This document shows, piece after piece, positions 21,256 through 62,376 of a stretch of 64,000 nt of DNA (its first letter is position 1; each line of letters opens with the position of its first letter). A program made the translations under genes and the position numbers. Under the pieces are notes generated by a model. That model was given only the letters and a program-made list of their open reading frames with translations. It was not told where the DNA came from and ran no database searches. Origin of the DNA: Omnitrophica bacterium GWA2_41_15 (lineage in GTDB: Bacteria; Omnitrophota; Gorgyraeia; Ghiorseimicrobiales; Ghiorseimicrobiaceae); contig CAKKQO010000017.1 of the NCBI GenBank assembly GCA_919902105.1, forward strand, positions 3,305 to 67,304, given 5' to 3'.

Positions 21256-21933
21256 ATGAGAAAGACAATATTATTTTTATCCTGGTTAATTTTTTACGTA
21301 GGTTCTGCCTATGCCGTGCCGATGAAAGGGCCGTATTTTTTAAAACAAGGCCAAATTGAGGTAGGCGTTGAGGCAAATTTTGTCGCCAGGCGCGATATTG
21401 AGGATATTACTACAAACATCCAAAGCAGCCAATTTTTTTATTGCATGGCCTTTGGTTTGTTTGACTGGTTAAATATCGAGGCAAAGTATGGCTCAGGCGA
21501 TATTAAGAACGATCAATATAATGACCAGAAATTTTATTATAATTACAACTGGGGCGGCGGATACGGCTTAAGAATAAAGGCATATGAAAACCATAAAATG
21601 AAAATTATCTTAGGGGCTCATCATATTAGTATCCATCCTGACCCGAACAAAAATACGGATAATTCAACCCATCGCGTAATTTTAGACGAAACGCAGTCCG
21701 ATATAACTTTAAGCCTAAAAGGAGAAAGGTTTAGCCCATACGCAGGCGCAAAAGTCGGGCATACCCGCCTTATCCGGCGCATAAATTCTGAGCGCGCGAC
21801 ATTACGCTCGGAAGAAAATTACGGTTTTGCTTTAGGGTTTGATTATATGTTTAAGAAAAACGTGCGTTTTAATTTTGAAGGCCGCTTCGTCGATGAATAC
21901 GCTTTGACCTCGAGCGTAAGCTACATATTTTAA
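21256..21933 (+). CDS. Putative outer-membrane beta-barrel protein
   Basis: 225 aa. Signal peptide (..GSAYA), alternating amphipathic strands, C-terminal ...SVSYIF. Confidence 0.5.
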   Translation: MRKTILFLSWLIFYVGSAYAVPMKGPYFLKQGQIEVGVEANFVARRDIEDITTNIQSSQFFYCMAFGLFDWLNIEAKYGSGDIKNDQYNDQKFYYNYNWGGGYGLRIKAYENHKMKIILGAHHISIHPDPNKNTDNSTHRVILDETQSDITLSLKGERFSPYAGAKVGHTRLIRRINSERATLRSEENYGFALGFDYMFKKNVRFNFEGRFVDEYALTSSVSYIF

Positions 21934-22047
21934 ATGAAGCCACAAGTTAGGGAACGTAAGTCGACATAACTTGTCTGGCTGAATTTATCCCGCCGAATAC
22001 CATAAAATTCTCTATTGATAATTTTATGGTATCTTATGAGGCGGGAG
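21934..22047 (-). repeat. Nested-hairpin boundary element (BH family), copy G, stop-codon-abutting orientation
   Basis: TAAATGAAG + AGCCACAAGTTA...TAACTTGTCTGGCT hairpin + GAATTT + ATCCCGCC[ACCATAAAATT...AATTTTATGGT]GGCGGGA. Confidence 0.7.
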
Positions 22048-22673: not shown

Positions 22674-23302
22674 TTACGCAAAAAACAGGAATAGAGATTA
22701 AGGCGATATTGTTTGATCTAGGTAATGTCACGGTAAATTTTAACCATTATTTAGCCGTTGAAAGGATAAAAAATTTTACGGATAAAAGCGGCGATGAAAT
22801 TTATCGGTTATTTTTTGATTCTGACCTTACCGGCTTATTTGAAGAAGGAAAACTTAAGCCTTATGAATTTTACCGTAAGGTAAAGGAACTTCTAAAAGTT
22901 AAAATTAGCTACGAAGAATTTGTGCCTATCTGGAATGAGATATTTTTTATTAGCGAAGATAACCTAAAAATGCACGCCCTGATTAAAAAATTCAGAGAAA
23001 AATTTACGGTGGTGTTAATTTCCAATATCAATAAGTTGCACTATGATTATTTGATAAAAAAATATGATATATTTGAAGAGTTTGATAAACATATACTTTC
23101 CTACGAAGTAGGTGCGCGTAAGCCGGCTACTTTAATTTATAAAGCAGCACTTAGGGATGCAGACGCAGATATTAAAGATGTGGTTTATATCGACGATAGG
23201 GAAGATTTAGTCAAGCAGGGTAACGCCTTGGGGATAAAGAGCATATGTTTTAAAAATTATCCGGCCCTTGTAGAAAGTTTAGGCGCCCTGGGGTTAATAT
23301 AA
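22670..23302 (+). CDS. HAD-superfamily hydrolase (subfamily IA-like)
   Basis: 210 aa. Motif I AILFDLGNV, motif II ISN, C-terminal YIDDRE. Confidence 0.7.
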   Translation: MITQKTGIEIKAILFDLGNVTVNFNHYLAVERIKNFTDKSGDEIYRLFFDSDLTGLFEEGKLKPYEFYRKVKELLKVKISYEEFVPIWNEIFFISEDNLKMHALIKKFREKFTVVLISNINKLHYDYLIKKYDIFEEFDKHILSYEVGARKPATLIYKAALRDADADIKDVVYIDDREDLVKQGNALGIKSICFKNYPALVESLGALGLI

Positions 23303-23304
23303 GG

Positions 23305-23440
23305 ATTTGCGGCATCGAGAAAAATCTAATCGCCAGCCGGCAGATTTTTCTTGCGTCGCAAAAGTATTTGCGACATCAAGCAAAAAATTTACGCCAGTTG
23401 GCATTTTTTGCTTGACAACAACTATATCTTGTGTTAACTT
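23305..23440 (+). promoter_or_regulatory. Promoter-carrying hairpin repeat (P family), copy P1 with duplicated unit; TTGACA-17-TAACTT
   Basis: GAAAAATCT-aatcgccagccggc-AGATTTTTC, TCGCAAA-agta-TTTGCGA, CATC, GCAAAAAAT-ttacgccagttggc-ATTTTTTGC, then TTGACA 23412-23417 and TAACTT 23435-23440. Confidence 0.55.
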
Positions 23441-24626: not shown

Positions 24627-24767
24627 CTCCGCCTCATAGGATGCCCTAAAATTTTCGTGCGATAATTTTAGGGCATTCGGCGGAGTTAATCCCGCGAGAA
24701 GCGGGATCAATTCCGGCATATAACTTATGAGCGCTTCGTTCCATAAGTTATGCCGTCATTGAGGAGG
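24627..24767 (+). repeat. Nested-hairpin boundary element (BH family), copy A, start-codon-abutting orientation
   Basis: CTCCGCC[ATGCCCTAAAATT...AATTTTAGGGCAT]GGCGGAG, ATCCCGC-gagaa-GCGGGAT, CAATTCC, GGCATATAACTTATG...CATAAGTTATGCC, GTCATTGAGGAGG, then TTG start 24773. Confidence 0.75.
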
Positions 24768-24772
24768 ATAAA

Positions 24773-25957
24773 TTGGCCAATAACCAGCAGGTTTTAGAAA
24801 AACCGCAGGCACAAACAGAAAATATTTCTGCGCTTCCTAGCCGGCGCAGGACTTTTCCCATCGATTATAGCGAGCTCAGCCTTTTTAAAGATGTCTCCCC
24901 TTTAGAATGGGAAGATTGGCATTGGCAGATAAAAAATAGTATTCATACCAAAGACCATCTTTCTCAGATTATTCAATTGACGCCACAGGAAGAAGAAGGT
25001 ATACGCCGCAGCCGCGGCCGCTTAGCGGTTTCCATTACTCCTTATTGGGCAACGTTGATAGATTCAGAAGATCCGCAGTGCCCAATAAGGCGCCAGGCCG
25101 TTCCTTTAGCCGATGAATTTAATATCGGCCCGCATGAGATGGCGGACCCTTGCGCAGAAGACAGGGATTCCCCTGTGCCCGGCTTAGTCCATCGTTATCC
25201 GGACAGAGTTCTATTGCTGGTAACTGAGCAGTGCGCAATGTATTGCCGGCATTGCACACGACGCAGGATTGTCGGCGAGAAAGAACACAGAGGCCTTGAT
25301 TTAAATAAGGCAGTAGAATATATCAAAGCAAACCATAAAATCCGCGATGTGCTTATTTCCGGCGGAGACCCTTTTATGCTTGAGGATGATGATTTGGAAA
25401 AAGTTATTCAAGCCGTCCGCGGCATCTCGCATGTGGAATTTTTGCGTATCGGAACACGTGTTCCGGTAACGCTTCCCCAGCGGATTAGCGAAAAATTAGT
25501 CATAATGCTTAAGAAATACTCGCCCCTATGGATAAGCCTGCATTTTAATCATCCCCGCGAAATCACTAAAAGAGTTAAGCAGGCAATGGCGATGCTGGCG
25601 GATTCCGGCTTTCCTTTAGGGTCGCAGACGGTGCTATTAAAAGGGATTAATGATAAACCGTATATTATGCGCAAGCTTATGCATGAATTGCTGAAAGTGA
25701 GGGTGCGGCCATATTATATTTATCAGTGTGACCCTGTCAAAGGCACTGCGCATTTTAGGACGCCCGTTGCCGTGGGCATAAACATAATTGAAAAGATGCG
25801 CGGCTATACCTCAGGATATGCAGTTCCTACCTATGTGGTAGACGCACCCGGCGGAGGCGGAAAAATACCCGTCGGGCCGAATTACCTTCTTTCTCAGGAT
25901 AAAGGGCGTTATACCCTAAGAAACTACAAAGGCAAAATATATACTTATATTGAATAA
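24773..25957 (+). CDS. kamA: Lysine 2,3-aminomutase (KamA-family radical SAM enzyme)
   Basis: 394 aa. CAMYCRHCTRR radical-SAM cluster, WEDWHWQ N-terminal block, ITPYWATL and SGGDPF blocks as in KamA. TTG start. Confidence 0.85.
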   Translation: MANNQQVLEKPQAQTENISALPSRRRTFPIDYSELSLFKDVSPLEWEDWHWQIKNSIHTKDHLSQIIQLTPQEEEGIRRSRGRLAVSITPYWATLIDSEDPQCPIRRQAVPLADEFNIGPHEMADPCAEDRDSPVPGLVHRYPDRVLLLVTEQCAMYCRHCTRRRIVGEKEHRGLDLNKAVEYIKANHKIRDVLISGGDPFMLEDDDLEKVIQAVRGISHVEFLRIGTRVPVTLPQRISEKLVIMLKKYSPLWISLHFNHPREITKRVKQAMAMLADSGFPLGSQTVLLKGINDKPYIMRKLMHELLKVRVRPYYIYQCDPVKGTAHFRTPVAVGINIIEKMRGYTSGYAVPTYVVDAPGGGGKIPVGPNYLLSQDKGRYTLRNYKGKIYTYIE

Positions 25958-26007
25958 ATCAAGATACTTTATAGGTGTATTTTTTGTTTTATAGCTACAT
26001 TTATTTA

Positions 26008-28112: not shown

Positions 28113-28823
28113 ATGGTAAAAATTGGAATATTCGGTTTAGAAAATATTTTTTCCGGCACAAAAGCCGCTGTCGCTGATAAACGCATCGATAAGCTAAAGG
28201 ATTTATTTAAATCCGCCAAAAAAGTCTATATAGAAACAGAGTTAATTTATGAACAAGCAAACCTATCTGAGGCAGACGGAATAATTATAAATAAGGATTC
28301 GAAACTGGATTTAATCTTATCCGACTTAGAGTTTGTCGAAACAAGGTTATCCCGGACAGAAGATAGAGGAGAAAAAGAATTACTCGCTAGATTTAAAATA
28401 AGCTTAGAAAAAGAAGAGTTTCTTTCTTTTGAGCCGTTAAACGATGCCGAGAAAAAGATTATTGCCCCATTCCAGTTGTTCACCATCAGGCCGATATATT
28501 TAGTAGATACAAGTAAAGAAGTGGATAAGGATGCCATTTTACTTAACGCTTATAATGAGTTTGGGTATATTTCTTTTTTTACCGTTGGCGATAAAGATTC
28601 GCATGGCTGGCCGCTAAAAAAAGGTTTGACTGCTTGGGATGCCGCAGGAGTAATCCATTCGGATATCCAGCGCGGCTTTATCCGCGCCGAAGTAGTGCAT
28701 TATGATGATTTAATTAAGGCGGGGCACTTAAACGAGGCGCGCAATAACGGGCTTTTAAAATTAGAAAATAAAGAATATGTAGTGCAAGACGGGGATTGGA
28801 TGCTCTTTAGGTTTAATAAATGA
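28113..28823 (+). CDS. YchF-like protein retaining the C-terminal DUF933/TGS-like domain but lacking a recognisable P-loop
   Basis: 236 aa. The C-terminus FFTVGDKDSHGWPLKKGLTAWDAAGVIHSDIQRGFIRAEV matches the YchF C-terminal domain. The N-terminus KIGIFGLENIFSGTKA replaces GxxGxGKST. Confidence 0.6.
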   Translation: MVKIGIFGLENIFSGTKAAVADKRIDKLKDLFKSAKKVYIETELIYEQANLSEADGIIINKDSKLDLILSDLEFVETRLSRTEDRGEKELLARFKISLEKEEFLSFEPLNDAEKKIIAPFQLFTIRPIYLVDTSKEVDKDAILLNAYNEFGYISFFTVGDKDSHGWPLKKGLTAWDAAGVIHSDIQRGFIRAEVVHYDDLIKAGHLNEARNNGLLKLENKEYVVQDGDWMLFRFNK

Positions 28824-28895
28824 CGGCACAACTTATAGAGCCGTAAGGCGATATAAGTTGTATGCCGGAATTTATCCCGACCGAAGCGTCGGGAT
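28821..28895 (-). repeat. BH family copy B1, stop-codon-abutting orientation
   Basis: AAATGAC (the TGA is the stop of the upstream gene) + GGCACAACTTATA...TATAAGTTGTATGCC + GGAATTT + ATCCCGAC-cgaagc-GTCGGGAT. Confidence 0.75.
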
Positions 28896-28952
28896 AAGTG
28901 AGGGTTCAGCCAAGAAGTATCAGTGGGATTGAACGTTGAGATTTATTAATAC

Positions 28953-29070
28953 TTGCTCCTTGCTTTAACGCTTGTAAATTTCTTCGAAATTTACTACGCA
29001 AGCTTCGGAGTCAATTCAGCCGGATAACTTATGGCATTCTGCGAATTCCATAAGTTATGGCTTCATTGAC
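28953..29070 (+). repeat. BH family copy B2: Q module + terminal hairpin, abutting the purH start
   Basis: The 65-nt Q module (28953-29017) is about 90 percent identical to 42711-42775. Then ATAACTTATGG...CCATAAGTTAT hairpin and TTCATTGAC before ATG 29071. Confidence 0.75.
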
Positions 29071-30633
29071 ATGATTAGAGTAAAACGCGCGCTTATAAGC
29101 GTATCAGATAAGCAGGGGATATTGGAATTTGCTAGAACACTCCAAAGTTTGGATGTTGAGATAATTTCAACCGGGGGGACAGCAAAGATATTATCCGACG
29201 GCGGAGTAAAAGTTATTGAGGTTTCGGATTATACTGGTTTTCCGGAAATGCTCGATGGCAGGGTTAAAACCTTGCATCCCAAGATACACGCAGGGCTTTT
29301 GGCTGTACGGGATAAGCCCGAGCATATGAAGCAATTAGCCGAACACAAGATAGGGCTGATTGATATGGTGGTAGTAAATTTATATCCTTTCGAGAAAACC
29401 ATACAAAAAAAAGGCGTGACACTTAGCACGGCAATTGAAAATATAGATATCGGCGGGCCTTCAATGTTAAGGTCTGCTGCGAAAAATTACCGTTCGGTAG
29501 CTGTGGTCTCTAATCCGGCCAGATACGAAGAGATTTTACGGGAATTAAAAAACAATAACGGCATATTATCAGATGCGGTTTTGACCCAGCTTGCTTTGGA
29601 TGTTTTTAATCTTACCTCTTATTATGACAAAGCAATTTTTAATTATTTAAAAGGCACTTTTTCTTTGGGGGAGCTTGAAAAAATCACCTTTCCAGAAACG
29701 ATAGAGCTTAGTTTTAAAAAGCTCCAGGACTTAAGATATGGCGAAAACCCGCATCAGAAGGCGGCATTTTATGCTAATAAAAATGGCGATTTAAGAGGGT
29801 TAGCGGGCGCCAAGCAATTAAGCGGCAAAGAGCTGTCTTTTAATAACATCTTAGATTTGAATTCTGCTTGGGGATTGGCTTGCGAGTTCGATAAACCTGC
29901 GGCAGTAATCGTTAAGCATAATAACCCTTGTGGCGCGGCCGAAGATGAAAATTTGCTTAAGGCATATCAGAATGCCTATAAGTGTGATCCGTTTTCTGCT
30001 TTTGGCGGGATTATCGCCTTAAACCGGCCGGTGGATAGGGCGGTAGCACAGGCATTGGAAAAGAGCGGGTTTATTGAATGTGTCCTTGCCCCGAGTTTTA
30101 GCAAAGATGTGCTTAAGATTCTAGAAAAAAAGAAAAATCTCAGGATTTTAGAGCTAAAAGATAATGAGATAAAAGAGAGCATAGACTTTAAGAAAGTGTC
30201 CGGCGGCATGCTCTTGCAGGATAAGGATTCAAAAATTTATGCCCCGGATAATTTAAAAACAGTGACAAAAAAGAAGCCTTCTAAGAAAGAAATTGAATCT
30301 TTACTTTTTGCTTTTAAAGTGGCAAAACACGTCAAATCCAATGCCATCATTTTAGCTAAGGCCACTATGACCGTTGGTGTCGGCGCAGGCCAGATGTCGC
30401 GCGTGGACAGCGCATATATTGCCATAAAAAAGGCTGGGAAGTTAGCCAAAGGTGCAGTTGCAGCAAGCGATGCCTTTTTCCCTAAAGAGGATGCCGTTAT
30501 CCAGCTGGCCAAGGCTGGGATAAAGTCAATAATTCAACCCGGCGGTTCCATCGCCGATGCGCAAATTATTAAAACTGCGTCTAAATTAGGCGTCTCTATG
30601 GTCTTCTGCGGGATGCGGCATTTTAGGCACTAA
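29071..30633 (+). CDS. purH: Bifunctional AICAR transformylase / IMP cyclohydrolase
   Basis: 520 aa. RALISVSDK, GGTA, DGRVKTLHP, NLYPF, NIDIGGPSMLR, VIVKHNNPCG and GGSI blocks. Confidence 0.9.
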   Translation: MIRVKRALISVSDKQGILEFARTLQSLDVEIISTGGTAKILSDGGVKVIEVSDYTGFPEMLDGRVKTLHPKIHAGLLAVRDKPEHMKQLAEHKIGLIDMVVVNLYPFEKTIQKKGVTLSTAIENIDIGGPSMLRSAAKNYRSVAVVSNPARYEEILRELKNNNGILSDAVLTQLALDVFNLTSYYDKAIFNYLKGTFSLGELEKITFPETIELSFKKLQDLRYGENPHQKAAFYANKNGDLRGLAGAKQLSGKELSFNNILDLNSAWGLACEFDKPAAVIVKHNNPCGAAEDENLLKAYQNAYKCDPFSAFGGIIALNRPVDRAVAQALEKSGFIECVLAPSFSKDVLKILEKKKNLRILELKDNEIKESIDFKKVSGGMLLQDKDSKIYAPDNLKTVTKKKPSKKEIESLLFAFKVAKHVKSNAIILAKATMTVGVGAGQMSRVDSAYIAIKKAGKLAKGAVAASDAFFPKEDAVIQLAKAGIKSIIQPGGSIADAQIIKTASKLGVSMVFCGMRHFRH

Positions 30634-32079
30634 ATGACCCACCCCCAAGCAATCCGCTATTTAGAATCCTTAGTAAACTACGAGAAGAAATCCTATTATC
30701 ATTATAAACACGCATTTAAATTAGAGGGCATAAAGAATTTTTTAGAAATCTTGGGCAATCCGCAGGATTCTCTACGCTGTATTCATATTGCCGGCACTAA
30801 AGGTAAGGGTTCAACCTGTGCCTTTATTGCTCATATCTTAAGAGAGGCCGGACTTTCCGTCGGACTTTATACCTCGCCGCATTTATCGGATTTCCGCGAG
30901 CGCATTAGGATTTTAACCATACCACCTACTACCTATCACCTATCACCTGAATTTGAGGGGATGATTTCAAAACAAGCGTTATCGCGCTTGGCTTGGCGCC
31001 TAAAGCCGACAATAGATAAATTTAACCACAATTCTAAATACGGCCCGCTGACATTTTTTGAAGTTTATACGGCACTCGCCTTTATTTATTTTAAAGAAAA
31101 AAAAGTGGATTTTGCGGTTTTAGAGACGGGTTTGGGCGGAAGATTAGATGCCACAAATGTGATTAATCCTTTAGTCTGCGTAATTACCCCGATAAGTTTA
31201 GAGCATACTCAACTTTTGGGCAATACATTAACGAAAATTGCCCGCGAGAAGGTGGGTATTATCAAGAAGTTTCGCCCCTCGCCCCTCGCCCCTCGCCCCT
31301 CGGTAGTAATCAGCGCGCCGCAGGAGGAAGCAGCAGCTAGGGTGATTAGGGATAGATGTAGAAAAGTTGGCGCTAGATTATATGAAGTAGGGAAGGATAT
31401 AAGATACAAAAAATCCGAAATCCGAAATCCGAAATCCGAAATAAATCTAAAATCCAAAATCAAAAAATTTAAAATCCGCGGAATTTTTAATGAATATAAT
31501 AATTTAAAAATAAAACTTTTAGGTAAGCATCAGCTGGTGAATGCCGCCACGGCAGTGGGGGCAGTTGAGGCGTTAAAAAAATACGGCATTAGTGTAAATA
31601 TCGATGCGATAAGAAAAGGGCTTTATAATACGTTTTGGCCGGGCAGATGCGAAATTGTATCTAAGAAACCGTTAATTGTTTTAGACGGTGCGCAGAATGT
31701 TGCTTCAGCTAAGGCATTAAAAGAAACGATTAAAGAAAATTTTTCCACCGAAGGCGGATCCGCCTCCGGCGGAAAGTATAAAAAGTTAATTCTGGTTTTA
31801 GGGGCTTGTTGCGATAAAGATATTAAGGGAATATGTAATGAGTTGTGCTTGATGGCAGACGAAATCATCTTAACCAAAGCCAAAAACCCGCGGGCGGCGG
31901 AGCCGGAGCATATCAGGGTTCAGGGTTCAGGGTTAAGGGTTAAGGAAAAAATACATTTAACAGAAAATGTAGAGGAAGCGATTCAAAAAGCAGAAGAGCT
32001 TACTAGCAAAGAAGATTTAATCCTGATTACGGGGTCGTTGTTTGTGGTGGCAGAGGCGAGGGAAGTGTTGCAGAAATGA
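30634..32079 (+). CDS. folC: Folylpolyglutamate synthase / dihydrofolate synthase, with several low-complexity in-frame inserts
   Basis: 481 aa. HIAGTKGKGST P-loop, LETGLGGRLDATN, GKHQLVNAATA, LDGAQNV blocks. Start abuts the purH stop. Confidence 0.85.
   Translation: MTHPQAIRYLESLVNYEKKSYYHYKHAFKLEGIKNFLEILGNPQDSLRCIHIAGTKGKGSTCAFIAHILREAGLSVGLYTSPHLSDFRERIRILTIPPTTYHLSPEFEGMISKQALSRLAWRLKPTIDKFNHNSKYGPLTFFEVYTALAFIYFKEKKVDFAVLETGLGGRLDATNVINPLVCVITPISLEHTQLLGNTLTKIAREKVGIIKKFRPSPLAPRPSVVISAPQEEAAARVIRDRCRKVGARLYEVGKDIRYKKSEIRNPKSEINLKSKIKKFKIRGIFNEYNNLKIKLLGKHQLVNAATAVGAVEALKKYGISVNIDAIRKGLYNTFWPGRCEIVSKKPLIVLDGAQNVASAKALKETIKENFSTEGGSASGGKYKKLILVLGACCDKDIKGICNELCLMADEIILTKAKNPRAAEPEHIRVQGSGLRVKEKIHLTENVEEAIQKAEELTSKEDLILITGSLFVVAEAREVLQK
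30923..30950 (+). repeat. Heptanucleotide tandem array in folC (CACCTAT-type, 4 units)
   Basis: CACCTAC TACCTAT CACCTAT CACCTGA. Translated as PTTYHLSP. Confidence 0.85.
31272..31302 (+). repeat. Heptanucleotide tandem array in folC (TCGCCCC x4)
   Basis: TCGCCCC x4 then TCGG. Translated as RPSPLAPRPS. Confidence 0.9.
31411..31480 (+). repeat. Heptanucleotide tandem array in folC (AAATCCG x4 plus degenerate AAAATCC-type units)
   Basis: AAATCCG x4, then AAATAAATCT AAAATCC AAAATCA AAAAATTT AAAATCCGCGG. Translated as KSEIRNPKSEINLKSKIKKFKIRG. Confidence 0.9.
31742..31775. repeat. 34-bp GC-rich palindrome, folC copy (31/34 identical to the mnmE copy)
   Basis: TTTCCACCGAAGGCGGATCCGCCTCCGGCGGAAA. 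Two A-C mismatches in the stem. Translated as STEGGSASGGK. Confidence 0.85.
31923..31957 (+). repeat. Heptanucleotide tandem array in folC (TCAGGGT x3, TAAGGGT, TAAGGAA)
   Basis: Direct reading. Translated as RVQGSGLRVKE. Confidence 0.9.
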
Positions 32080-33611: not shown

Positions 33612-35099
33612 ATGATTGATACAAGGTTTAATCTAACCGACACAATCGCGGCGATGGGGACGGGGCTAGGGGAAGCCGGTATCGGAATTGTGCGCATTAG
33701 TGGAAAAGATGCGCTAAAGATTGCCGATAAGATTTTTGTTGGTAAAGACGGTAACAAACCGTCGCAATTTAAAACATATACGCTGCATTATGGGTGGATT
33801 GTGAATAGTCCACAGTCCATAGTCCGTAGTCCACAGAAAAAAAAGAAGAAACTACCGACTACCGACTACCGACTACCGACTAATATTATCGATGAAGTGC
33901 TTTTGACGGTAATGCGCGCGCCCAAGAGTTATACTAAGGAAGATGTAGTGGAGATAAATTGCCATGGAGGGATTGTGGCAATGCGGGCGGTATTAGATTT
34001 GGTTTTGGCGAATGGGGCGCGCCTTGCCTCTGGCGGTGAATTTACCAAGCGTGCCTTTTTAAACGGAAGGATTGATTTAAATCAGGCAGAGGCAGTTCTG
34101 GATATAATTCGCGCCAAAACAGATAGTGCGCTTAAAATAGGGACAGAGCAGTTAAGAGGGATATTGTCTTTGCAAATAAATAAACTGCATAAGGATTTGT
34201 TAGGCGTACTTACGATATTAGAAGCAAATATTGATTTTCCCGATGAAGAAATTGGCGCGGTTAATTTAAAAGAGGTTAATAAAAAGCTCAAGACCACAAA
34301 GAATAAACTAAAAGATATTGTAGATTTGGCAAAGCGCGGGCAAGTGCTGCGCGATGGTATTGGCGCGGTTATCTGCGGCAGGCCCAATGTGGGCAAATCC
34401 TCGCTTTTGAATGCGCTCTTAAGAAGGGAGCGCTCTATCGTTAGCCCGGTTGCCGGCACTACCCGTGACACAATAGAGGAAATTATCGATATAAAAGGCA
34501 TTCCAATTAGGATTGTAGATACTGCAGGAATTATTGAGCCGCGGGATTTAGTGGAAAAAAAGGCGGTTTCGCGCTCTAAGCGCGTTATTGATCTGGCGGA
34601 TTTGGTGATTTTGCTTTTTGACGGCAGCCAAAAATTAAACAAAGAAGATAGTGCGCTGATTAAAAAATTTCCTCCGAAGGCGGATCCGCCTTCGGAGGAA
34701 AGCAAAAAGCAAGTTATCGCGGTTATAAATAAAATAGACCTAAGGCAAAAAATAAAAAAAGAGAAACTAAATAAAGTATTTGAATGTGTAATTGAGCTTT
34801 CAGCGAAGAAAATAAAGAATATAAATTTATTAGAAGATGCGATTGCGGGTTTGGTGTTTGGCGGAAAAATCAATAAATCCGAGTCTCTACTGGTGAGTAA
34901 TTTAAGGCATATTGAGTTGCTTAGGGGAGCGCAAAAAACTCTTGGCCAGGCCTGCGATTCGCTGGATAATAAAGTGTCTCTTGAATTCATTGCCCAGGAT
35001 ATTAAGGCGGCCTTAGGTTATTTTGATGATATTTTAGGTAAGAAATTTTCCGAAGACCTATTGGATAAGATATTTGGGGAGTTTTGTATCGGTAAATGA
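33612..35099 (+). CDS. mnmE: tRNA modification GTPase MnmE with in-frame repeat inserts
   Basis: 495 aa. DTIAA..T, SYTKEDVVEINCHGG, GRPNVGKSSLLNAL, VAGTTRD, DTAG, C-terminal FCIGK. Confidence 0.85.
   Translation: MIDTRFNLTDTIAAMGTGLGEAGIGIVRISGKDALKIADKIFVGKDGNKPSQFKTYTLHYGWIVNSPQSIVRSPQKKKKKLPTTDYRLPTNIIDEVLLTVMRAPKSYTKEDVVEINCHGGIVAMRAVLDLVLANGARLASGGEFTKRAFLNGRIDLNQAEAVLDIIRAKTDSALKIGTEQLRGILSLQINKLHKDLLGVLTILEANIDFPDEEIGAVNLKEVNKKLKTTKNKLKDIVDLAKRGQVLRDGIGAVICGRPNVGKSSLLNALLRRERSIVSPVAGTTRDTIEEIIDIKGIPIRIVDTAGIIEPRDLVEKKAVSRSKRVIDLADLVILLFDGSQKLNKEDSALIKKFPPKADPPSEESKKQVIAVINKIDLRQKIKKEKLNKVFECVIELSAKKIKNINLLEDAIAGLVFGGKINKSESLLVSNLRHIELLRGAQKTLGQACDSLDNKVSLEFIAQDIKAALGYFDDILGKKFSEDLLDKIFGEFCIGK
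33806..33880 (+). repeat. Two heptanucleotide arrays joined by an A-run inside mnmE (TAGTCCA-type x4, ACTACCG x4)
   Basis: TAGTCCA CAGTCCA TAGTCCG TAGTCCA (33806-33833), A-rich linker, ACTACCG x4 (33851-33878). Translated as SPQSIVRSPQKKKKKLPTTDYRLPTN. Confidence 0.9.
34668..34701. repeat. Perfect 34-bp GC-rich palindrome inside mnmE
   Basis: TTTCCTCCGAAGGCGGATCCGCCTTCGGAGGAAA. Translated as FPPKADPPSEE. Confidence 0.9.
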
Positions 35100-35204
35100 A
35101 GACATAACTTATGGAGCGATAGCGAACATAAGTTATCTGTCTGAATTTATCCCGAAGCGTGTGCAGGAAATTTCAAAGAAATTTCCAAACGCTTACGCAA
35201 GGGA
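35095..35204 (-). repeat. BH family copy F, stop-codon-abutting orientation
   Basis: AAATGAA (the TGA is the mnmE stop) + GACATAACTTATG...CATAAGTTATCTGTC + TGAATTT + ATCCCGAAGCGT[GGAAATTTC-aaa-GAAATTTCC]ACGCTT..GGGA. Confidence 0.7.
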
Positions 35205-41694: not shown

Positions 41695-41815
41695 ATCCCG
41701 TTTCGTAAGATGCGTCAAAATTCTATTCTACAATTTTGACGCACTCAACGGGATCAATTCCGACATATAATTTACGTAAACTTTGTTTACGTAAATTATG
41801 TCGTCATTTAGGAGC
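41695..41815 (+). repeat. BH family copy D, start-codon-abutting orientation
   Basis: ATCCCGTT[GCGTCAAAATT...AATTTTGACGC]AACGGGAT, CAATTCC, GACATATAATTTACGTAAA...TTTACGTAAATTATGTC, GTCATTTAGGAGC, then ATG 41820. Confidence 0.75.
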
Positions 41816-41819
41816 AGAT

Positions 41820-42641
41820 ATGAATAAAAAATTAATTTTCATTATTTCCATCTCTATACTTATTACGGCAGGCCTTTATATACTTATAAAGAATGTTTCG
41901 TTTAAATCTAATAAATCAGCGCCTAATGCAGCATCCGCCCGTCAACTTTTTGAGTTAGCCAAGGGCCAAGAATTAAATAATGAATTGCTTCTTGCAAAAG
42001 CCACGTATCGAGAAATTATTAATAATTATCCTGATTATCGAGAAATACAAGATGTCGAGAAAAAAATAGAAGATTTGAATACAAGGATTATTTTTTTACC
42101 TACGCTTATTGCGCCTACAAGCATATTCTACTTCGTCGCACCCGGAGATAGCCTAAACAAGATTGCCAGAGAATTTAATACTACCGTCGAATTAATCTCG
42201 AAAATAAATATGCTTAAGTCTGGGATAATCCGGCCGGGAATAAAGCTTAAGATTTGGACGGGTAAGTTTAGCGTATTGGTGGATAAATCTCAGAATATAC
42301 TAATGCTTAAGTCTGATAATGAGATAATCAAGGTCTATACGGTTTCAACGGGTATAAATAACTCTACCCCGGTCGGGGCTTTTAAGATTAAGGATAGAAT
42401 TGTTAACCCTCCTTGGTTTAAGCCGGGGGCGCCTAAGCCTATTCCGGCAGGGAACCCGGAAAATATTTTGGGCACGCGCTGGCTGGGTTTTGATTTACCT
42501 AGTTATGGAATACACGGGACTATTGATCCCAAAACGCTGGGTCAGCAGGTTACTAATGGCTGCGTCAGGATGAAGAACGAAGATGTGGAGGAGCTATTCT
42601 CTTTGTTGCCGCCAGATACGGAAGTAACGATTATCGATTAA
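41820..42641 (+). CDS. LysM domain + YkuD-type L,D-transpeptidase
   Basis: ATG 41820 (MNKKLIF, TM/signal). LysM YFVAPGDSLNKIAREF. YkuD catalytic HGT...GCVRM. Confidence 0.8.
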   Translation: MNKKLIFIISISILITAGLYILIKNVSFKSNKSAPNAASARQLFELAKGQELNNELLLAKATYREIINNYPDYREIQDVEKKIEDLNTRIIFLPTLIAPTSIFYFVAPGDSLNKIAREFNTTVELISKINMLKSGIIRPGIKLKIWTGKFSVLVDKSQNILMLKSDNEIIKVYTVSTGINNSTPVGAFKIKDRIVNPPWFKPGAPKPIPAGNPENILGTRWLGFDLPSYGIHGTIDPKTLGQQVTNGCVRMKNEDVEELFSLLPPDTEVTIID

Positions 42642-42710: not shown

Positions 42711-42826
42711 TGCTCCTTGCTTGAGCGCTAGTAAATTTCTTACGAAATTTACTACGCAAGCTGCGGAGTCAATTCGCGCAAAATAATTTACATCAGCTTC
42801 GCTTCTGTAAATTATGCGCTCATTGA
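42711..42826 (+). repeat. BH family copy C: Q module + terminal hairpin, abutting the accA start
   Basis: Q module 42711-42775, GCGCAAAATAATTTACA...TGTAAATTATGCGC hairpin, then TCATTGA directly fused to ATG 42827. Confidence 0.75.
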
Positions 42827-43792
42827 ATGGCTAATTTAGATTTTGAACGGCCTATAAAAGAATTAGAAAAAAAAATAGAAGAGTTAAAGCATTTTTCTTC
42901 CGAGCGCAAGGTTGATTTATCTACAGAGATTAAAACCTTAGAAGAGAAGTTATTAAAATTACGTAAAGAAACCTACCAGAATCTAACTGCTTGGCAGAGG
43001 GTGCAGATTGCCCGCCATCCTAGGCGGCCATATACTATAGATTATATAAAACTCATTACTACAGATTTTATTGAACTGCACGGTGACAGGCTTTTTGGCG
43101 ACGATAAAGCTATAATTTCTGGCTTTGCAAAGATAGAACCGTATAAAGTTTTGATTATCGGCCAGCAAAAAGGCCGCGATATCAAGGAAAATATTTTACG
43201 TAACTTTGGCTGCGCGCATCCAGAGGGTTTTAGAAAAAGTATGCGCCTGATGAAGCTTGCCGCACAGTTTAATCTGCCTATTGTGGTTTTTATTGATACG
43301 CCAGGCGCCTATCCGGGAATCGGCGCAGAAGAAAGAGGCCAGGCGCAGGCAATTGCAGAAAACCTGCGCGATATGACAAAAATAAATGTGCCGATAGTGG
43401 TGATTGTAATCGGCGAGGGGGGCTCAGGCGGTGCACTCGGTATAGGCGTTGGGGACAGGGTCTGTATTTTAGAAAACGCCTACTATTCGGTTATCTCTCC
43501 TGAGGGGTGCGCGGCTATCCTCTGGAAAGATAGCGCAAAGGCGCCACTTGCGGCTGAGGCGCTTAAGCTGACCTCAGAAGATTTGTTTAAGGCAGGTTTA
43601 ATCGACGAAATTATCCCTGAGCCGTTAGGGGGGGCGCATAACAATCCCCAAGAGACAGCTCGGAGTATCAGACAAACCATCCTTAAATATCTAAAAGAGC
43701 TAAACTTGATTCCTGAAGATAAACTGCTGGAATTAAGATACGAAAAGTTTAGAAAAGTAGGCAGAATTAGCCCTTCGACTCCTTCGGGGTAA
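42827..43792 (+). CDS. accA: Acetyl-CoA carboxylase carboxyltransferase alpha subunit
   Basis: 321 aa. [41 protein letters not shown] blocks. Short GC-rich C-terminal tail ISPSTPSG. Confidence 0.9.
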
Positions 43793-46147: not shown

Positions 46148-46269
46148 CCTCCTCAATGACGACACGACTTATGGAAATCGTAGATTGATATAAGTCGTAT
46201 GTCGGAATTGATACCGAAAGCTGCGATAAAAATTTGGAACAAATTTTTGAAGCGTTTTACTTTCGGTAT
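46148..46269 (-). repeat. BH family copy E (minus orientation), abutting the rpmA start
   Basis: On the - strand: ATACCGAAAG[...AAAAATTT..AAATTTTT...]CTTTCGGTAT, CAATTCC, GACATACGACTTAT...ATAAGTCGTGTC, GTCATTGAGGAGG, 8 nt, ATG. Confidence 0.75.
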
Positions 46270-46348
46270 TAATGCTAAAAATTTCTAATTTTATTCACTG
46301 ATTCAAAGCGCCATATTATATGTAATTTGAGCCATTTTGTCAATGGGC

Positions 46349-57861: not shown

Positions 57862-58209
57862 ATGTTTCAGCTTAACCTTACCCGTCAGGAAAAGAATGTA
57901 ATTTTAGTGGTTATTCTTGCAGCACTTGTTGGCATCGGCATAAGTTATTTATTTAAAGCAATACCTAAGGCAGACGAGGCATATAATGCCTCTTTTGATA
58001 AGCCGTTAAAGGTAAATATCAACACCGCCTCGTTCGATGAGTTAATTAAGCTTCCTGAAATCGGCCCTAAGACCGCAGAAAGAATCATAAACTTCCGCGG
58101 CAAAAACGGAAAATTTTCTGAAATAGACCAATTAAAACAAATCCAAGGCATTACAGATAAAAAATTAACGCGCATAAAAGAATTCCTTGTTCTTGAAGAG
58201 CCAAAATAA
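57862..58209 (+). CDS. comEA: ComEA-family helix-hairpin-helix DNA-binding protein
   Basis: 115 aa. TM anchor, then VNINTASFDELIKLPEIGPKTAERII..R...G.F..I..L..I.GI. Confidence 0.75.
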   Translation: MFQLNLTRQEKNVILVVILAALVGIGISYLFKAIPKADEAYNASFDKPLKVNINTASFDELIKLPEIGPKTAERIINFRGKNGKFSEIDQLKQIQGITDKKLTRIKEFLVLEEPK

Positions 58210-59632
58210 AAAAATAAATTTTGTTCTTGTCCCTATCGCTGTTTGCTTTTCTTTGGGGATATCGGCGGCGAGTTTCACTAATATCCCTTTTTTTATTTGT
58301 TATCCGCTTTCTGCCATTCTGCTCATTGTTTGTTTATTCCTAAGAGATGATGAGGCGTTTAGCATAAATTTATTGGGCCTGGCTTTTTTTATCGGGGCAG
58401 CGCATTTATCCTCTTATCAGACCCTACCTAAAAATCACATTGCTGATGCTAATAATCGCTGGATATTTTGGCAGGATGGTATTTTGGCAAGGGGTCTTAT
58501 TATCGATGAGCCGCAAATTAAAGAGGGAAGAGCTAAGTTTATATTATATTTGTCAGAGATAAAGGTTGGGGGTGGGGAACAAAAAGCAACAGTAAGGGGA
58601 AAAATTTTAGTTACGGTTTTTGACGGAGAAGTATTGCCAAAAATATCTTACGGCGATGAGGTAATTTTGGAGGGAAAATTTTTCAGGCCGCATAATTTTG
58701 GTAAAAAAAGCAATTTCGACTATCGCCGTTATTTAACGCGCCGAGGCATATACGGTGCATTAAATGTCAGAAAAGGCGCGCCTTTTAAAATAACCGCGCA
58801 TAATAGAGGGAATTTTATTAAGCAATTGGCGATTAAATTTAAAAATAAAATAGAGTCTGGCTTTTACGCTAATATGCCTGAAAGCTACGCGGCGGTCTTA
58901 TCAACAATGTTATTAGGGGATAGGTCGAGTTTACCTAAAGGGATTTTAGAAGTATTTGTCAGGACCGGCACCGCCCATATTCTGGCTATAAGCGGCATGA
59001 ATATCGCGATAACCGCTTTTATTCTGCTTGTATTTCTAAAAGTAATGCGCATTCCCAGAAAGCCGCGTTATATTTTAACCATCCTGCTCCTTGTATTTTA
59101 TAATTTTATTACCGGCGCACAGCCGTCTGTAAGCCGAGCAGTGATTATGGGCTCGGTTTTGTTAGTCGGATTGTTGCTTGAGAGGGAGGTAAATATCTAT
59201 AATTCTCTGGCTTTGGCAGCGTTAATCCTACTGGCACAAAATCCCTTGCAAATACAAGAGATAGGGTTTCAACTGTCTTTTGTCAGCGTTATCTCAATAG
59301 TTTATCTTTCCCCAAAGATAGAAAGGTTTTTACGCCTGAATAATTTTATTCTAAAATCTTTTTCTGTATCGCTGGCGGCGTGGCTTGGCACATTCCTATT
59401 CATAATTTATTACTTTAAGATTATTTCGCCGGTGACTATTTTGGCTAATTTAGTTATTGTGCCTTTGGTAACGGTGCTTACGGTGGCAGGGTTTATTTTG
59501 ATGTTGGGGATATTTATTCTACCGGCTTTTGTTCACGTATTTGGCCTGACTGCGGGTGCAAGCGTTTATCTCTTGATTAAATCCGCTGAACTTTTCTCCC
59601 TCATCCCCGGCGCATATTTTTATTTAAAATAA
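58187..59632 (+). CDS. comEC: ComEC/Rec2 DNA internalisation channel (DUF4131 + competence domain; no metallo-beta-lactamase domain)
   Basis: 481 aa, multi-TM. Conserved GTAHILAISGMNI and SRAVIMG blocks. TTG start uncertain. Confidence 0.7.
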   Translation: MFLKSQNKKINFVLVPIAVCFSLGISAASFTNIPFFICYPLSAILLIVCLFLRDDEAFSINLLGLAFFIGAAHLSSYQTLPKNHIADANNRWIFWQDGILARGLIIDEPQIKEGRAKFILYLSEIKVGGGEQKATVRGKILVTVFDGEVLPKISYGDEVILEGKFFRPHNFGKKSNFDYRRYLTRRGIYGALNVRKGAPFKITAHNRGNFIKQLAIKFKNKIESGFYANMPESYAAVLSTMLLGDRSSLPKGILEVFVRTGTAHILAISGMNIAITAFILLVFLKVMRIPRKPRYILTILLLVFYNFITGAQPSVSRAVIMGSVLLVGLLLEREVNIYNSLALAALILLAQNPLQIQEIGFQLSFVSVISIVYLSPKIERFLRLNNFILKSFSVSLAAWLGTFLFIIYYFKIISPVTILANLVIVPLVTVLTVAGFILMLGIFILPAFVHVFGLTAGASVYLLIKSAELFSLIPGAYFYLK

Positions 59633-59633
59633 A

Positions 59634-59729
59634 TTTTTCTTGCGCCACAAAAGTCTTTGCGGCATCGCGCAAAAAATTTACGCCAGAAGGCATTTTTTGC
59701 TTGACAAACAAAATCGGATTGATTAAAAT
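59634..59729 (+). promoter_or_regulatory. P-family hairpin repeat copy P2 with TTGACA-17-TAAAAT; leaderless start
   Basis: CTTGCG, CCACAAA-agtc-TTTGCGG, CATC, GCGCAAAAAAT-ttacgccagaaggc-ATTTTTTGC, TTGACA 59701-59706, TAAAAT 59724-59729, ATG 59737. Confidence 0.6.
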
Positions 59730-61256: not shown

Positions 61257-61273
61257 GCGTCAAAAGATTTTAT

Positions 61274-61301
61274 TTGACTTTTTTTATTTTTGTGGTATAA
61301 T
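61274..61301 (+). promoter_or_regulatory. Promoter TTGACT-16-TATAAT with extended -10 TG
   Basis: TTGACT 61274-61279, TGG-TATAAT 61293-61301. Confidence 0.55.
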
Positions 61302-61341
61302 TAAAATGTAAGCGCGAAGCAGCGCTTAAAAGACAAGGCAG

Positions 61342-61369
61342 TCCGCAAAAGATAATTTTGCGGATTTTT
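61342..61369 (+). terminator. Intrinsic terminator-like hairpin
   Basis: TCCGCAAAA-gataa-TTTTGCGGA + TTTTT. Confidence 0.7.
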
Positions 61370-61370
61370 A

Positions 61371-61451
61371 TTGAGGCCACAACTTATGGAGCGAATGCGC
61401 TCATAAGTTGTATGGCCGAAATAATCCCGCGGATAGTTTACGAAGCGGGAT
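61371..61451 (-). repeat. BH family copy H
   Basis: TTATTGAG + GGCCACAACTTATG...CATAAGTTGTATGGCC + GAAATAA + TCCCGC-ggatagtttacgaa-GCGGGA. Confidence 0.7.
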
Positions 61452-61469
61452 AGAAGAATGAAGGGAGTA

Positions 61470-61506
61470 AAGGCGCTCCGGTAAAACGGAGCGCCTTTTT
61501 ATTTTT
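61470..61506 (+). terminator. Strong intrinsic terminator
   Basis: AAGGCGCTCCG-gtaaaa-CGGAGCGCCTT + TTTATTTTT. Confidence 0.85.
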
Positions 61507-61556
61507 AATGAGTGCATAACTTAGAGAGCTCGATAGAGCGATATAAGTTATATACA
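61507..61556 (-). repeat. Solo BH-type terminal hairpin (copy I)
   Basis: TAATGAG + GTGCATAACTTA-gagagctcgatagagcgata-TAAGTTATATACAC. Confidence 0.55.
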
Positions 61557-61627
61557 CGAATTAACTTCGAAGTTTACCGTGAAAATATCGTAAGAAATTT
61601 TCATGGTGTTTAAACGAGGAGTAGATC

Positions 61628-62274: not shown

Positions 62275-62376
62275 CCTTGCGTCGTAAAAGTTTTTACGAC
62301 ATCAGCAAAATCTAATCGCAAGTTTGTAGATTTTGTTTGACAGAACAAGTCTAATAAAGTATATTAGTGTATACTT
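62275..62376 (+). promoter_or_regulatory. P-family hairpin repeat copy P3 with TTGACA-17-TATATT and an overlapping 7-6-7 inverted repeat (candidate ArsR operator)
   Basis: CTTGCG, TCGTAAA-agtt-TTTACGA, CATC, CAAAATCT-aatcgcaagtttgt-AGATTTTG, TTGACA 62337-62342, TATATT 62360-62365, AAGTATA-ttagtg-TATACTT 62357-62376. Confidence 0.55.

Follow-up and report, generated by a model that had tools for sequence, protein, structure and literature searches.

The repeats analysed here belong to a so far undescribed family of DNA elements of the Omnitrophota, small, modular and hairpin-forming, which are positioned exactly against the start and stop codons of genes. The family is of the interspersed palindromic repeat or hairpin-MITE kind and is specific to this phylum, whose members are abundant, uncultivated and often ultra-small, with a genome biology known only from metagenomes. 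Its unusual traits are a phylum-wide sequence conservation, a precisely structured core, polar doublets with unlike ends, the abutment on codons and the frequency of starts lacking a Shine-Dalgarno sequence. We favour, with moderate confidence, a reading in which it is a non-autonomous, modular palindromic family, similar to REP/BIME/REPIN elements or to hairpin MITEs, that has multiplied and been reshuffled in Omnitrophota genomes. Each unit consists of a variable hairpin (HP1), for which there are a few recurrent types, and, after it, of the irregular and highly conserved hairpin HP2.

The window, that is the whole stretch of 64,000 nucleotides analysed, is identical in sequence to metagenome contigs obtained from groundwater of the Hainich aquifer (well H51). 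Its G+C content is about 41%, its GC skew is uniformly positive and most of its genes lie on the plus strand. It holds ten copies of the element, five facing a start codon and five in the opposite orientation (Table 1). The five start-facing copies had been listed in a first-pass annotation of this DNA; all lie where it placed them and are recovered by the covariance model described below. The five inverted copies were recognised by repeat finding and by reading the minus strand. By counting two degenerate patterns, each describing one side of HP2, we found 5 occurrences of AATTCNNNCNNAYAAYTTAY and 6 of RTAARTTRTNNNNTCATT in the window, with 0.00 and 0.01 expected from shuffles, respectively, which excludes chance as their origin. 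A covariance model of the HP2 core, built from 50 copies (the 10 of the window and 40 from other genomes), returned exactly 10 matches in the window, at 64-79 bits. Since the next-best matches (at most 22 bits) were the opposite strands of the same ten copies, the orientation of the element is well defined. No two copies of the window are near-identical, and thus there is no sign of a recent burst within it.

Table 1. Copies of the element in the window, with their parts and immediate surroundings.
Feature	Coordinates	Strand	Score (bits)	Structure	Surroundings
Copy 1	24627..24767	+	71.6	Outer hairpin ACTCCGCC..GGCGGAGT enclosing GATGCCCTAAAATT..AATTTTAGGGCATTC	Precedes kamA; host Shine-Dalgarno GAGGAGG after HP2; kamA start TTG at 24773
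Copy 1, HP1	24689-24707	+		ATCCCGCGAGAAGCGGGAT	
Copy 1, HP2 core	24707..24762	+		Foot TCAAT/ATTGA; TC/TC loop; lower stem CGGC/GCCG; bulge AT; upper stem ATAACTTATG/CATAAGTTAT; apical AGCGCTTCGTTC	
Copy 2	41695..41815	+	69.6	HP1 + HP2	Tail TCATTTA, then GGAGC and the ATG of the LysM/YkuD L,D-transpeptidase gene at 41821
Copy 3	46148..46269	-	66.4		rpmA 5' UTR; tail TCATTGAGGAGG; rpmA ATG 15 nt after TCATT
Consensus sigma-70-type promoter	46315..46343	-		TTGACA-17-TATAAT, 12/12	Upstream of copy 3
Copy 4	28953..29070	+	68.0	HP1 with GTAAATTTC..GAAATTTAC core, + HP2	Tail TCATTGA, then C and the purH ATG at 29071; no Shine-Dalgarno
Copy 5	42711..42826	+	63.7	HP1 88% identical to that of copy 4	Tail TCATTGA, accA ATG directly after at 42827; no Shine-Dalgarno
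Copy 6	21931..22044	-	74.0	Inverted; C-G to G-C flip in upper stem	Tail TAAATGA on the + strand, its TAA being the stop of ORF 21256-21933
Copy 7	28818..28895	-	79.2	Inverted; HP2 + short HP1 ATCCCGACGCTTCGGTCGGGAT	Tail TGA serves as stop of the YchF_C-domain gene 28113-28823
Copy 8	35093..35202	-	78.2	Inverted	Tail TGA is the trmE stop (35097-35099); HP1 end adjoins Shine-Dalgarno and ATG of folE (35217)
Copy 9	61368..61450	-	75.7	Inverted; variant foot ATTTC/TCAAT	Between two terminator-like hairpins
Copy 10	61507..61600	-	64.0	Inverted; in tandem with copy 9	Tail after a strong terminator; HP1 end adjoins Shine-Dalgarno of gene 61628

HP2 is a single irregular hairpin of about 57 nt from foot to foot. 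It starts with a foot of 5-6 bp (TNAAT/ATTN'A), followed by a conserved TC/TC internal loop, a lower stem of 4 bp that is free in sequence but complementary, and a bulge of 2 nt located in the 5' arm in every case. The upper stem of 10 bp (AYAACTTATG/CATAAGTTRT) displays Y-R covariation and occasional compensated changes, including a C-G to G-C flip, and carries another TC/TC loop; the tip beyond this loop is variable, with 3 to 66 nt. The architecture proposed in the first-pass annotation, with an outer hairpin, a linker, a second hairpin and a tail, was found in all five of its copies. However, the linker CAATTCC and the tail GTCATTGA, which it had taken for conserved flanks, base-pair with one another and make up the foot of HP2.

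Across the 50 copies of the model, the pairs proposed for HP2 were formed in 99.4% of the cells, and 106 cells, involving 9 pairs, were changed on both sides. None of 500 shuffles reached these values and only 28-44% of the cells were paired when the partner columns were slid. The compensatory stem changes first noticed in the window are therefore genuine and pairing is preserved when more copies are aligned; the idea that structure rather than sequence is kept holds for the variable stems. The C-G to G-C flip is also real and defines a subfamily, ATAAGTTATG/CATAACTTAT, present in many genomes. In the 119 copies aligned to the model, the arms of the foot covary (AATTC/TCATT, AAGTTC/TCACTT, ATGTTC/TCACAT, AAGCTC/TCGCTT and ATTTC/TCAAT), as do the base 5' of AAT and the base 3' of ATT (TCAAT/ATTGA, TAAAT/ATTTA and TTAAT/ATTAA). 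G·T combinations outnumber A·C ones in the stems (23 vs 8), which weakly favours the element strand in an alignment fitted by an RNA model.

The 3' arm of HP1 ends with GGGNT and touches the foot of HP2. An inverted partner for this arm was found at most 130 nt away in 56 of 106 copies, compared to 4 of 106 in a control located 300 nt away. The few HP1 types that recur in many genomes are one with an AAATTT core, CCCTTGACA..TGTCAAGGG, CCCAGCAC..GTGCTGGG, CCCACACC..GGTGTGGG and a short CCCG..CGGG. Variants of the HP2 lower stem are likewise shared across genomes (GGCC at 15 loci, GCGC at 15, GCAC at 10, AGCC at 9 and CGAC at 7), they are linked to the foot base (p = 0.004), and several subfamilies occur within single genomes. 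Such recurring, foot-linked and co-occurring variants form the pattern of copied-element lineages.

At the gathering score, Rfam 15 identified only two tRNAs in the window and no family matching the element, and a permissive search of the doublet region returned unrelated families with a best sub-threshold E-value of 0.3. In the searchable literature on Omnitrophota repeats, two genome papers included, we found no description of the element. Thus, the first-pass annotation was right that the sequence matches no described family, and right in kind when it proposed an interspersed family of the REP/BIME or MITE type.

To delineate the distribution of the family, species-representative genomes were scanned with a 14-base HP2 pattern, which gave at least 118 loci, and the loci listed were then examined with the covariance model. 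Full elements were confirmed in 54 of the loci listed, from at least 48 genomes, and the model found about 120 copies among the matches listed, 119 of which were aligned. Among the same matches, the positive genomes are nearly all labelled Candidatus Omnitrophota or Omnitrophica; the other labels are Planctomycetes-type (7 loci from 6 genomes), Neomarinimicrobiota (1 locus, L082) and "uncultured bacterium" (1 locus, L104). None of the remaining pattern-match loci listed, all assigned to other phyla, was confirmed by the model. The family therefore extends well beyond the window, as the first-pass annotation had supposed, and occurs across the phylum Omnitrophota rather than in one genome. Element-bearing genomes come from groundwater, lake sediment, deep mine water and marine sediment. 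A two-arm pattern had 0 matches in 2.9 million viral contigs, and blastn found no match in a plasmid collection. We also used an unbiased sample of 80 metagenome loci (882 kb) around homologues of the GTPase of the window; it contained 22 matches, the majority of the loci being empty. Density thus differs about sixfold, from about 1 per 40 kb in this sample to 1 per 6.4 kb in the window, and is patchy and lineage-dependent. Such a phylum-restricted and easily modelled repeat accounts for some assembly breaks and could be used as a lineage marker in binning.

In most copies, the HP2 tail is found at a gene boundary. A start codon in the same direction was found within about 20 nt in 52 of the 119 copies, whereas 26 of the 119 overlap the stop of a converging gene, this stop (TGA or TAA in TNAATGA) corresponding to TCA or TTA on the tail's own strand. 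In the window, three of the five inverted copies (6, 7 and 8) overlap the end of the upstream gene and donate its stop codon. The distances to the start codon are bimodal, with 24 copies having a start 1-6 nt after TCATT, 0 at 7-9 nt and 34 at 10 nt or more. First, none of the 24 close starts has a Shine-Dalgarno sequence and 23 of them use ATG; these represent 41% of the start-facing copies (24/58). Second, 33 of the 34 distant starts have a Shine-Dalgarno sequence, which begins right at the end of the foot. We could confirm that ATG comes right after the hairpin without any Shine-Dalgarno sequence at purH and accA, as first noticed from the window. In contrast, the proposal that the tail supplies the Shine-Dalgarno sequence of other copies does not hold. 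An empty orthologous site (locus L141) reads TAGGAGAAAGAGATG, the filled site of the 95%-identical L137 retains AGGAGAAA after the element, and two different alleles of the kamA element are followed by the same Shine-Dalgarno sequence. Since it is present both at the empty site and next to both kamA alleles, the Shine-Dalgarno sequence is adjoining host sequence. Elements directly abut codons, and many essential genes begin immediately behind the hairpin, devoid of a ribosome-binding site; the family thus offers a natural experiment in which mobile hairpins reshape the translation signals of compact genomes.

Units often pair into doublets, always as a minus unit followed by a plus unit, with the tails pointing outward and HP1 in the middle. 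Doublets have inverted terminal modules of about 65 nt, which single units lack, and their two ends usually differ in type: A-type ends have a 3-bp AAT/ATT foot, and B-type ends a 4-bp foot (AAGT/ACTT and similar), often with the flipped upper stem and a longer tip. A-type tails adjoin 50 starts and 16 stops, while B-type tails adjoin 0 starts and 9 stops (Fisher p = 1.6e-5). The typical order is stop codon, inverted B-type HP2, HP1, A-type HP2, Shine-Dalgarno sequence and ATG. In the window, copies 7 and 4 form a tail-outward doublet that occupies the entire gap between the YchF_C-domain gene and purH, with a DNA fold of -52 kcal/mol (z = -7.0). The RNA fold of copy 1 is -71.1 kcal/mol (z = -7.9). 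The polarity of the doublet ends and the bimodal spacing of starts could mean that the elements have a function for the host.

Promoter and terminator scans found no consensus promoter or terminator-like site inside any element above the shuffle background. TTGACA is present in some HP1 hairpins, without a correctly spaced -10 box, and the hairpins of the element lack the T-run that comes after the G+C-rich hairpin of an intrinsic terminator. That the repeat is an ordinary terminator or promoter, or else a riboswitch, leader or similar cis-regulatory RNA specific to one gene, is thus extremely improbable despite its intergenic position and the TTGACA boxes: its neighbours are unrelated (kamA, purH, accA, rpmA, the L,D-transpeptidase gene, trmE and folE), it occurs in both orientations and it has no Rfam match. 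Three further readings of the sequence were dropped as not general, namely a promoter inside the element, small upstream ORFs contained in HP2, and a K-turn formed by the GA/GA loops of the opposite strand. Consensus promoters were found outside the elements, upstream in locus L184 and downstream of a B-type unit in L148. In the window, rpmA is the only gene with a consensus promoter upstream of its element, which places copy 3 within the rpmA leader. There is no promoter room between the upstream gene and the element at kamA and purH, and the scan found no promoter-like site from the L,D-transpeptidase stop to the accA copy; the kamA, purH and accA copies are therefore most likely intercistronic. 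Given that only rpmA has such a promoter and that half of the window copies are inverted, the earlier view of the element as mainly a 5' UTR is not supported.

About 60 lineages share synteny where the YchF_C-domain gene meets purH, and in most of them the two genes are 2-50 nt apart (TAA..AGGAGG..ATG). Elements of differing subfamily composition occupy it in the window, L122, L201, L137, L126 and L147, and L161 has a degenerate remnant. L137, with a doublet-filled gap of 183 nt, and L141, with a gap of 12 nt, have flanks that are 95% identical and constitute a clean filled/empty pair; such pairs are a starting point for studying the insertion mechanism. We also compared the window with two contigs of a related strain, L122 and L123, that are 94-96% identical to it. 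At the three comparable sites there was one indel of 133 nt and one allele replacement. First, copy 7 and its spacer (28820-28952) are absent from L122. Second, L123 has another allele of the kamA element: its HP1 resembles that of copy 3, it includes an extra nested hairpin and its HP2 stem is compensated (ATGACTTAC/GTAAGTCAT), the start codon and Shine-Dalgarno sequence being the same as in the window. Third, L122 still has copy 4, whose tip differs there by a compensated pair of changes (ATTC/GAAT to ACTC/GAGT), and this double substitution hints at selection on resident copies. Looking up further proteins of the window returned the same strain and no new polymorphisms. No target-site duplication could be recognised at L137/L141 or window/L122, where flanks diverged by 5-8% could hide one of 2-3 bp. 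Together, these comparisons show that the elements come and go between related strains and lineages.

Both strands of the elements fold stably. We examined which strand carries the conserved asymmetry. The sense-minus-antisense folding energy was +3.6 kcal/mol in start-facing and stop-facing copies alike (p = 0.89 between the classes); the element strand is less stable than its complement because TC/TC turns into tandem G·A on the latter. On the element strand, T and C predominate in the tip loops of both classes, and the stop-facing copies of the window score highest with the covariance model. The asymmetry thus follows the element strand whatever the direction of the gene, so that the conserved feature belongs to the element itself. 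It speaks against conservation being due to an mRNA-specific structure. It fits a protein that mobilises or recombines the element and recognises its hairpin as DNA, or the descent from competent master copies.

These observations bear directly on the possibility that the repeat is a boundary element selected by the host at the RNA level, that is a stabiliser, insulator or processing site in polycistronic transcripts, with mobility being secondary or ancient. According to this scenario, the B-type end would cap the upstream 3' end, the A-type end would directly precede the Shine-Dalgarno sequence or ATG, and an ATG within 1-6 nt would allow a Shine-Dalgarno-independent, leaderless-like initiation. 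We regard it as possible and on the whole rather unlikely. A generic, orientation-independent effect on RNA, such as stability or insulation, may be attractive in view of the foot polarity of the doublets and of the starts without Shine-Dalgarno sequence, all the more so as the purH sites without element nearly always have one, which makes those starts exceptional. The promoters predicted upstream of the element at rpmA and L184, the compensatory change in the orthologous copy and the stability of both strands when folded point in the same direction. However, the bulge, the TC/TC loops and the T/C-rich tips stay on the element strand even where this strand is antisense to the mRNA, in copies that are equally well or better conserved, and a sequence-specific RNA partner could not read both orientations. 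Moreover, most related lineages have the same junctions without any element, and some copies lie upstream of promoters or between terminators.

A more specific proposal, which we find doubtful, is that the A-type hairpin acts as a phylum-specific gene-start signal, a dedicated protein or RNase cutting or anchoring the ribosome at the foot of HP2, and that the doublet is a mobile punctuation mark. If this were true, the genes with a start 1-6 nt after TCATT (24 of 58 start-facing copies, those of purH and accA among them) would be translated without a Shine-Dalgarno sequence as processed leaderless-type mRNAs, and the heterotypic doublet would split operon transcripts into separately stabilised messages.

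Returning to the mobile palindromic family that we favour, we infer its mode of movement as follows. HP2, as single-stranded or extruded DNA, would be recognised by a conserved putative transposase or recombinase reading the hairpin. Such recognition would explain why the upper stem, the TC/TC loops and the bulge are kept, with compensated variation at the other stem positions. In these compact genomes, an insertion would be tolerated only in the few bases that separate a stop from the following ribosome-binding site, so that the element would end up occupying whole intergenic gaps. Its foot (TNAATGA inward) would lend a stop to the upstream gene and its other side would abut the Shine-Dalgarno sequence or ATG. 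The elements would be co-transcribed with their neighbours, and mRNA stability and translation are probably affected as a side effect, as for REP and Correia elements. Selfish repeats normally differ between genera, and an upper stem that is near-identical phylum-wide is therefore unusual for them and counts against the mobile reading. The repeat points to a putative hairpin-recognising enzyme conserved throughout the phylum.

A RAYT or other Y1 transposase, suggested as partner in the first-pass annotation, was not detected: tblastn with IS608 TnpA and E. coli RAYT, a weak test given that these query sequences were approximate, returned nothing in 1.86 Mb of loci. Clustering of ORFs near the elements of 54 loci revealed no enriched protein family, and the Pfam-annotated parts of the source genome contained no transposase, the element neighbourhoods consisting of housekeeping genes only. 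A single-copy enzyme gene located elsewhere in the genome would be compatible with these searches. The L140 segment between inward-facing B-type ends was considered as a transposase carrier and rejected, as it encodes ordinary DUF212-like and L,D-transpeptidase genes.

REP/BIME elements and REPIN doublets are known from Proteobacteria, where they are mobilised by RAYT, a Y1 HUH transposase whose own gene is flanked by repeats; REP palindromes are 20-40 nt long, extragenic and present in many copies. The Omnitrophota elements share with them the extragenic multicopy imperfect palindromes, inverted pairs of two types (similar to Y and Z units), specific linkers, co-transcription, the position at gene ends, the non-autonomous nature, a compensated hairpin and the lack of an obvious target duplication. 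They differ by a hairpin of about 57 nt instead of 20-40 nt, two TC/TC loops, a 2-nt bulge, an extra variable HP1 module, a sequence kept across a phylum and not only within a genus, and the absence of RAYT from the loci searched. REP palindromes are described as carrying a conserved GTAG or CGTC tetranucleotide at one end (PMC3733652). This tag is absent from the consensus of our 119 copies, the two ends of which are TNAAT-TC and TC-ATTN'A.

The likeness to Correia (NEMIS, from Neisseria), ERIC, RUP and BOX elements lies in the size of 100-250 bp, the inverted terminal modules, the insertion at or overlapping start and stop codons, the inclusion in 5' UTRs and intercistronic RNA, the presence or absence between strains and a modularity reminiscent of BOX A-B-C. 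In contrast to Correia elements and MITEs, the Omnitrophota element has no sequence similarity to them and no recognisable TA or other target duplication, each of its terminal modules is a self-contained hairpin, its doublet ends are unlike and it is phylum-wide. As for a parent DDE insertion sequence with the same ends, from which a MITE would derive, there was no recurrent neighbour gene in the 54 loci, and plasmids and viruses gave no match.

HP2 also parallels an integron attC site part for part: both are defined by structure with a partly conserved sequence, and both combine a paired foot with an internal loop, a stem with a bulge and a tip that varies. The repeat could thus be a folded single-strand recombination site, of the kind of attC or of the attP of CTX phage, at which a tyrosine recombinase would insert or exchange small cassettes at gene boundaries. 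The foot would be the R box, TC/TC the unpaired central spacer, the bulged stem the L box with its extrahelical bases and the tip the variable terminal structure. Several of the above findings would suit such a site, namely the location directly after stop codons and before the next gene, the swap of a whole element allele at an identical site between strains that are 96% identical, and filled/empty pairs without visible target duplication. Nonetheless, we judge it very unlikely. Integron attC sites belong to arrays of promoterless mobile cassettes beside an intI gene, whereas the genes flanking the repeat are housekeeping genes, syntenic across lineages and not cassette-like, the orientation of the elements relative to genes is mixed in the window, and no integrase lies near any copy in the annotated neighbourhoods. 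Furthermore, the foot reads TNAAT/ATTN'A where the R-box consensus would be RYYYAAC/GTTRRRY, and the upper-stem sequence is strongly conserved, unlike in attC.

Finally, the ends of IS200/IS605 elements and PATEs resemble the repeat by their subterminal imperfect hairpins, short conserved motifs on both sides of the foot, and the absence of target duplication and of classical terminal inverted repeats. No TnpA homologue was detected in the 1.86 Mb of loci with the approximate query. A further difference to IS200/IS605 is that the hairpins of an Omnitrophota doublet are mutually inverted instead of lying on the same strand, and the window copies are spread over both strands (4 plus and 6 minus) without bias relative to the inferred leading strand.

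At kamA, two independent Logan assemblies (L002 and L003) have as their first position window position 24709, exactly the AATTCC of the element copy preceding this gene (copy 1), so the element is a site at which assemblies of this organism break. The RNA fold of copy 1 allows an alternative, seen in this copy alone, in which the outer hairpin pairs through its 5' end (ACUCCGCCUCA) with the tail and Shine-Dalgarno sequence (UGAGGAGG); such a structure would mask the kamA ribosome-binding site.

In the 96% identical strain (contig L123), kamA is separated from the GTPase gene by a beta-barrel-like ORF of 1 kb, which ends in ..LKYRF and is missing from the window; this indel is unrelated to the repeat. 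Upstream of a GTPase homologue in another locus (L184), we observed a 273-nt tandem duplication whose unit comprises the whole promoter (TTGCCA-17-TATTAT), the element and the Shine-Dalgarno sequence, with an HP2 (the conserved irregular hairpin) identical to one HP2 in an unrelated MAG locus (L059). Strains might exchange element alleles through DNA uptake, a capacity that the comEA-like (HHH_3) and comEC-like (Competence, DUF4131) genes of the window suggest for this organism.

Coordinates of the features discussed (window coordinates unless a locus is named)
Feature	Position	Detail
Alternative pairing, copy 1	24627-24640 with 24758-24769	
Beta-barrel-like ORF	L123 2760-3798	window site 25992-25998
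Tandem duplication	L184 1-560	
comEA-like and comEC-like genes	57862-59632	
34-nt palindromes	31742-31775; 34668-34701	
Second-family copy	23301-23418	+ strand gene start 23622
Second-family copy	59633-59707	+ strand gene start 59701
Second-family copy	62287-62339	+ strand gene start 62333
Region of the possible small RNA gene	61257-61367	
Its promoter	61274-61301	TTGACT-16-TG-TATAAT
Its terminator	61340-61366	
Second terminator	61469-61498	strong

In three lineages (L152, L154 and L197) the boundary between ychF and purH is occupied by families unrelated to the element, including short CGGTATCGGTA-type repeats and long GGCCAAAATTATCTTC inverted repeats, which makes this boundary a site where repeats in general land. 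The ychF/purH gap of L130 and L131 is filled by hairpins similar to a G+C-rich 34-nt palindrome, TTTCC[AT]CCGAAGGCGGATCCGCCT[CT]CGG[CA]GGAAA. The window holds this palindrome within two unrelated ORFs, a folC-like gene (..FSTEGGSASGGKY..) and trmE (..FPPKADPPSEES..), in different frames while both ORFs stay open, a likeness to the Rickettsia palindromic elements.

A second repeat family, consisting of a hairpin GCAAAAAAT..ATTTTTTGC followed by TTGACAA, has three copies in the window, each upstream of a + strand gene, and may be a terminator-plus-promoter module. Beside the inverted element copy 9, we noticed what could be a gene for a small RNA of about 60 nt: its promoter is near consensus and has an extended -10, and two hairpins and then a terminator come after it. 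Copy 9 is flanked by this terminator on one side and a second, strong one on the other.
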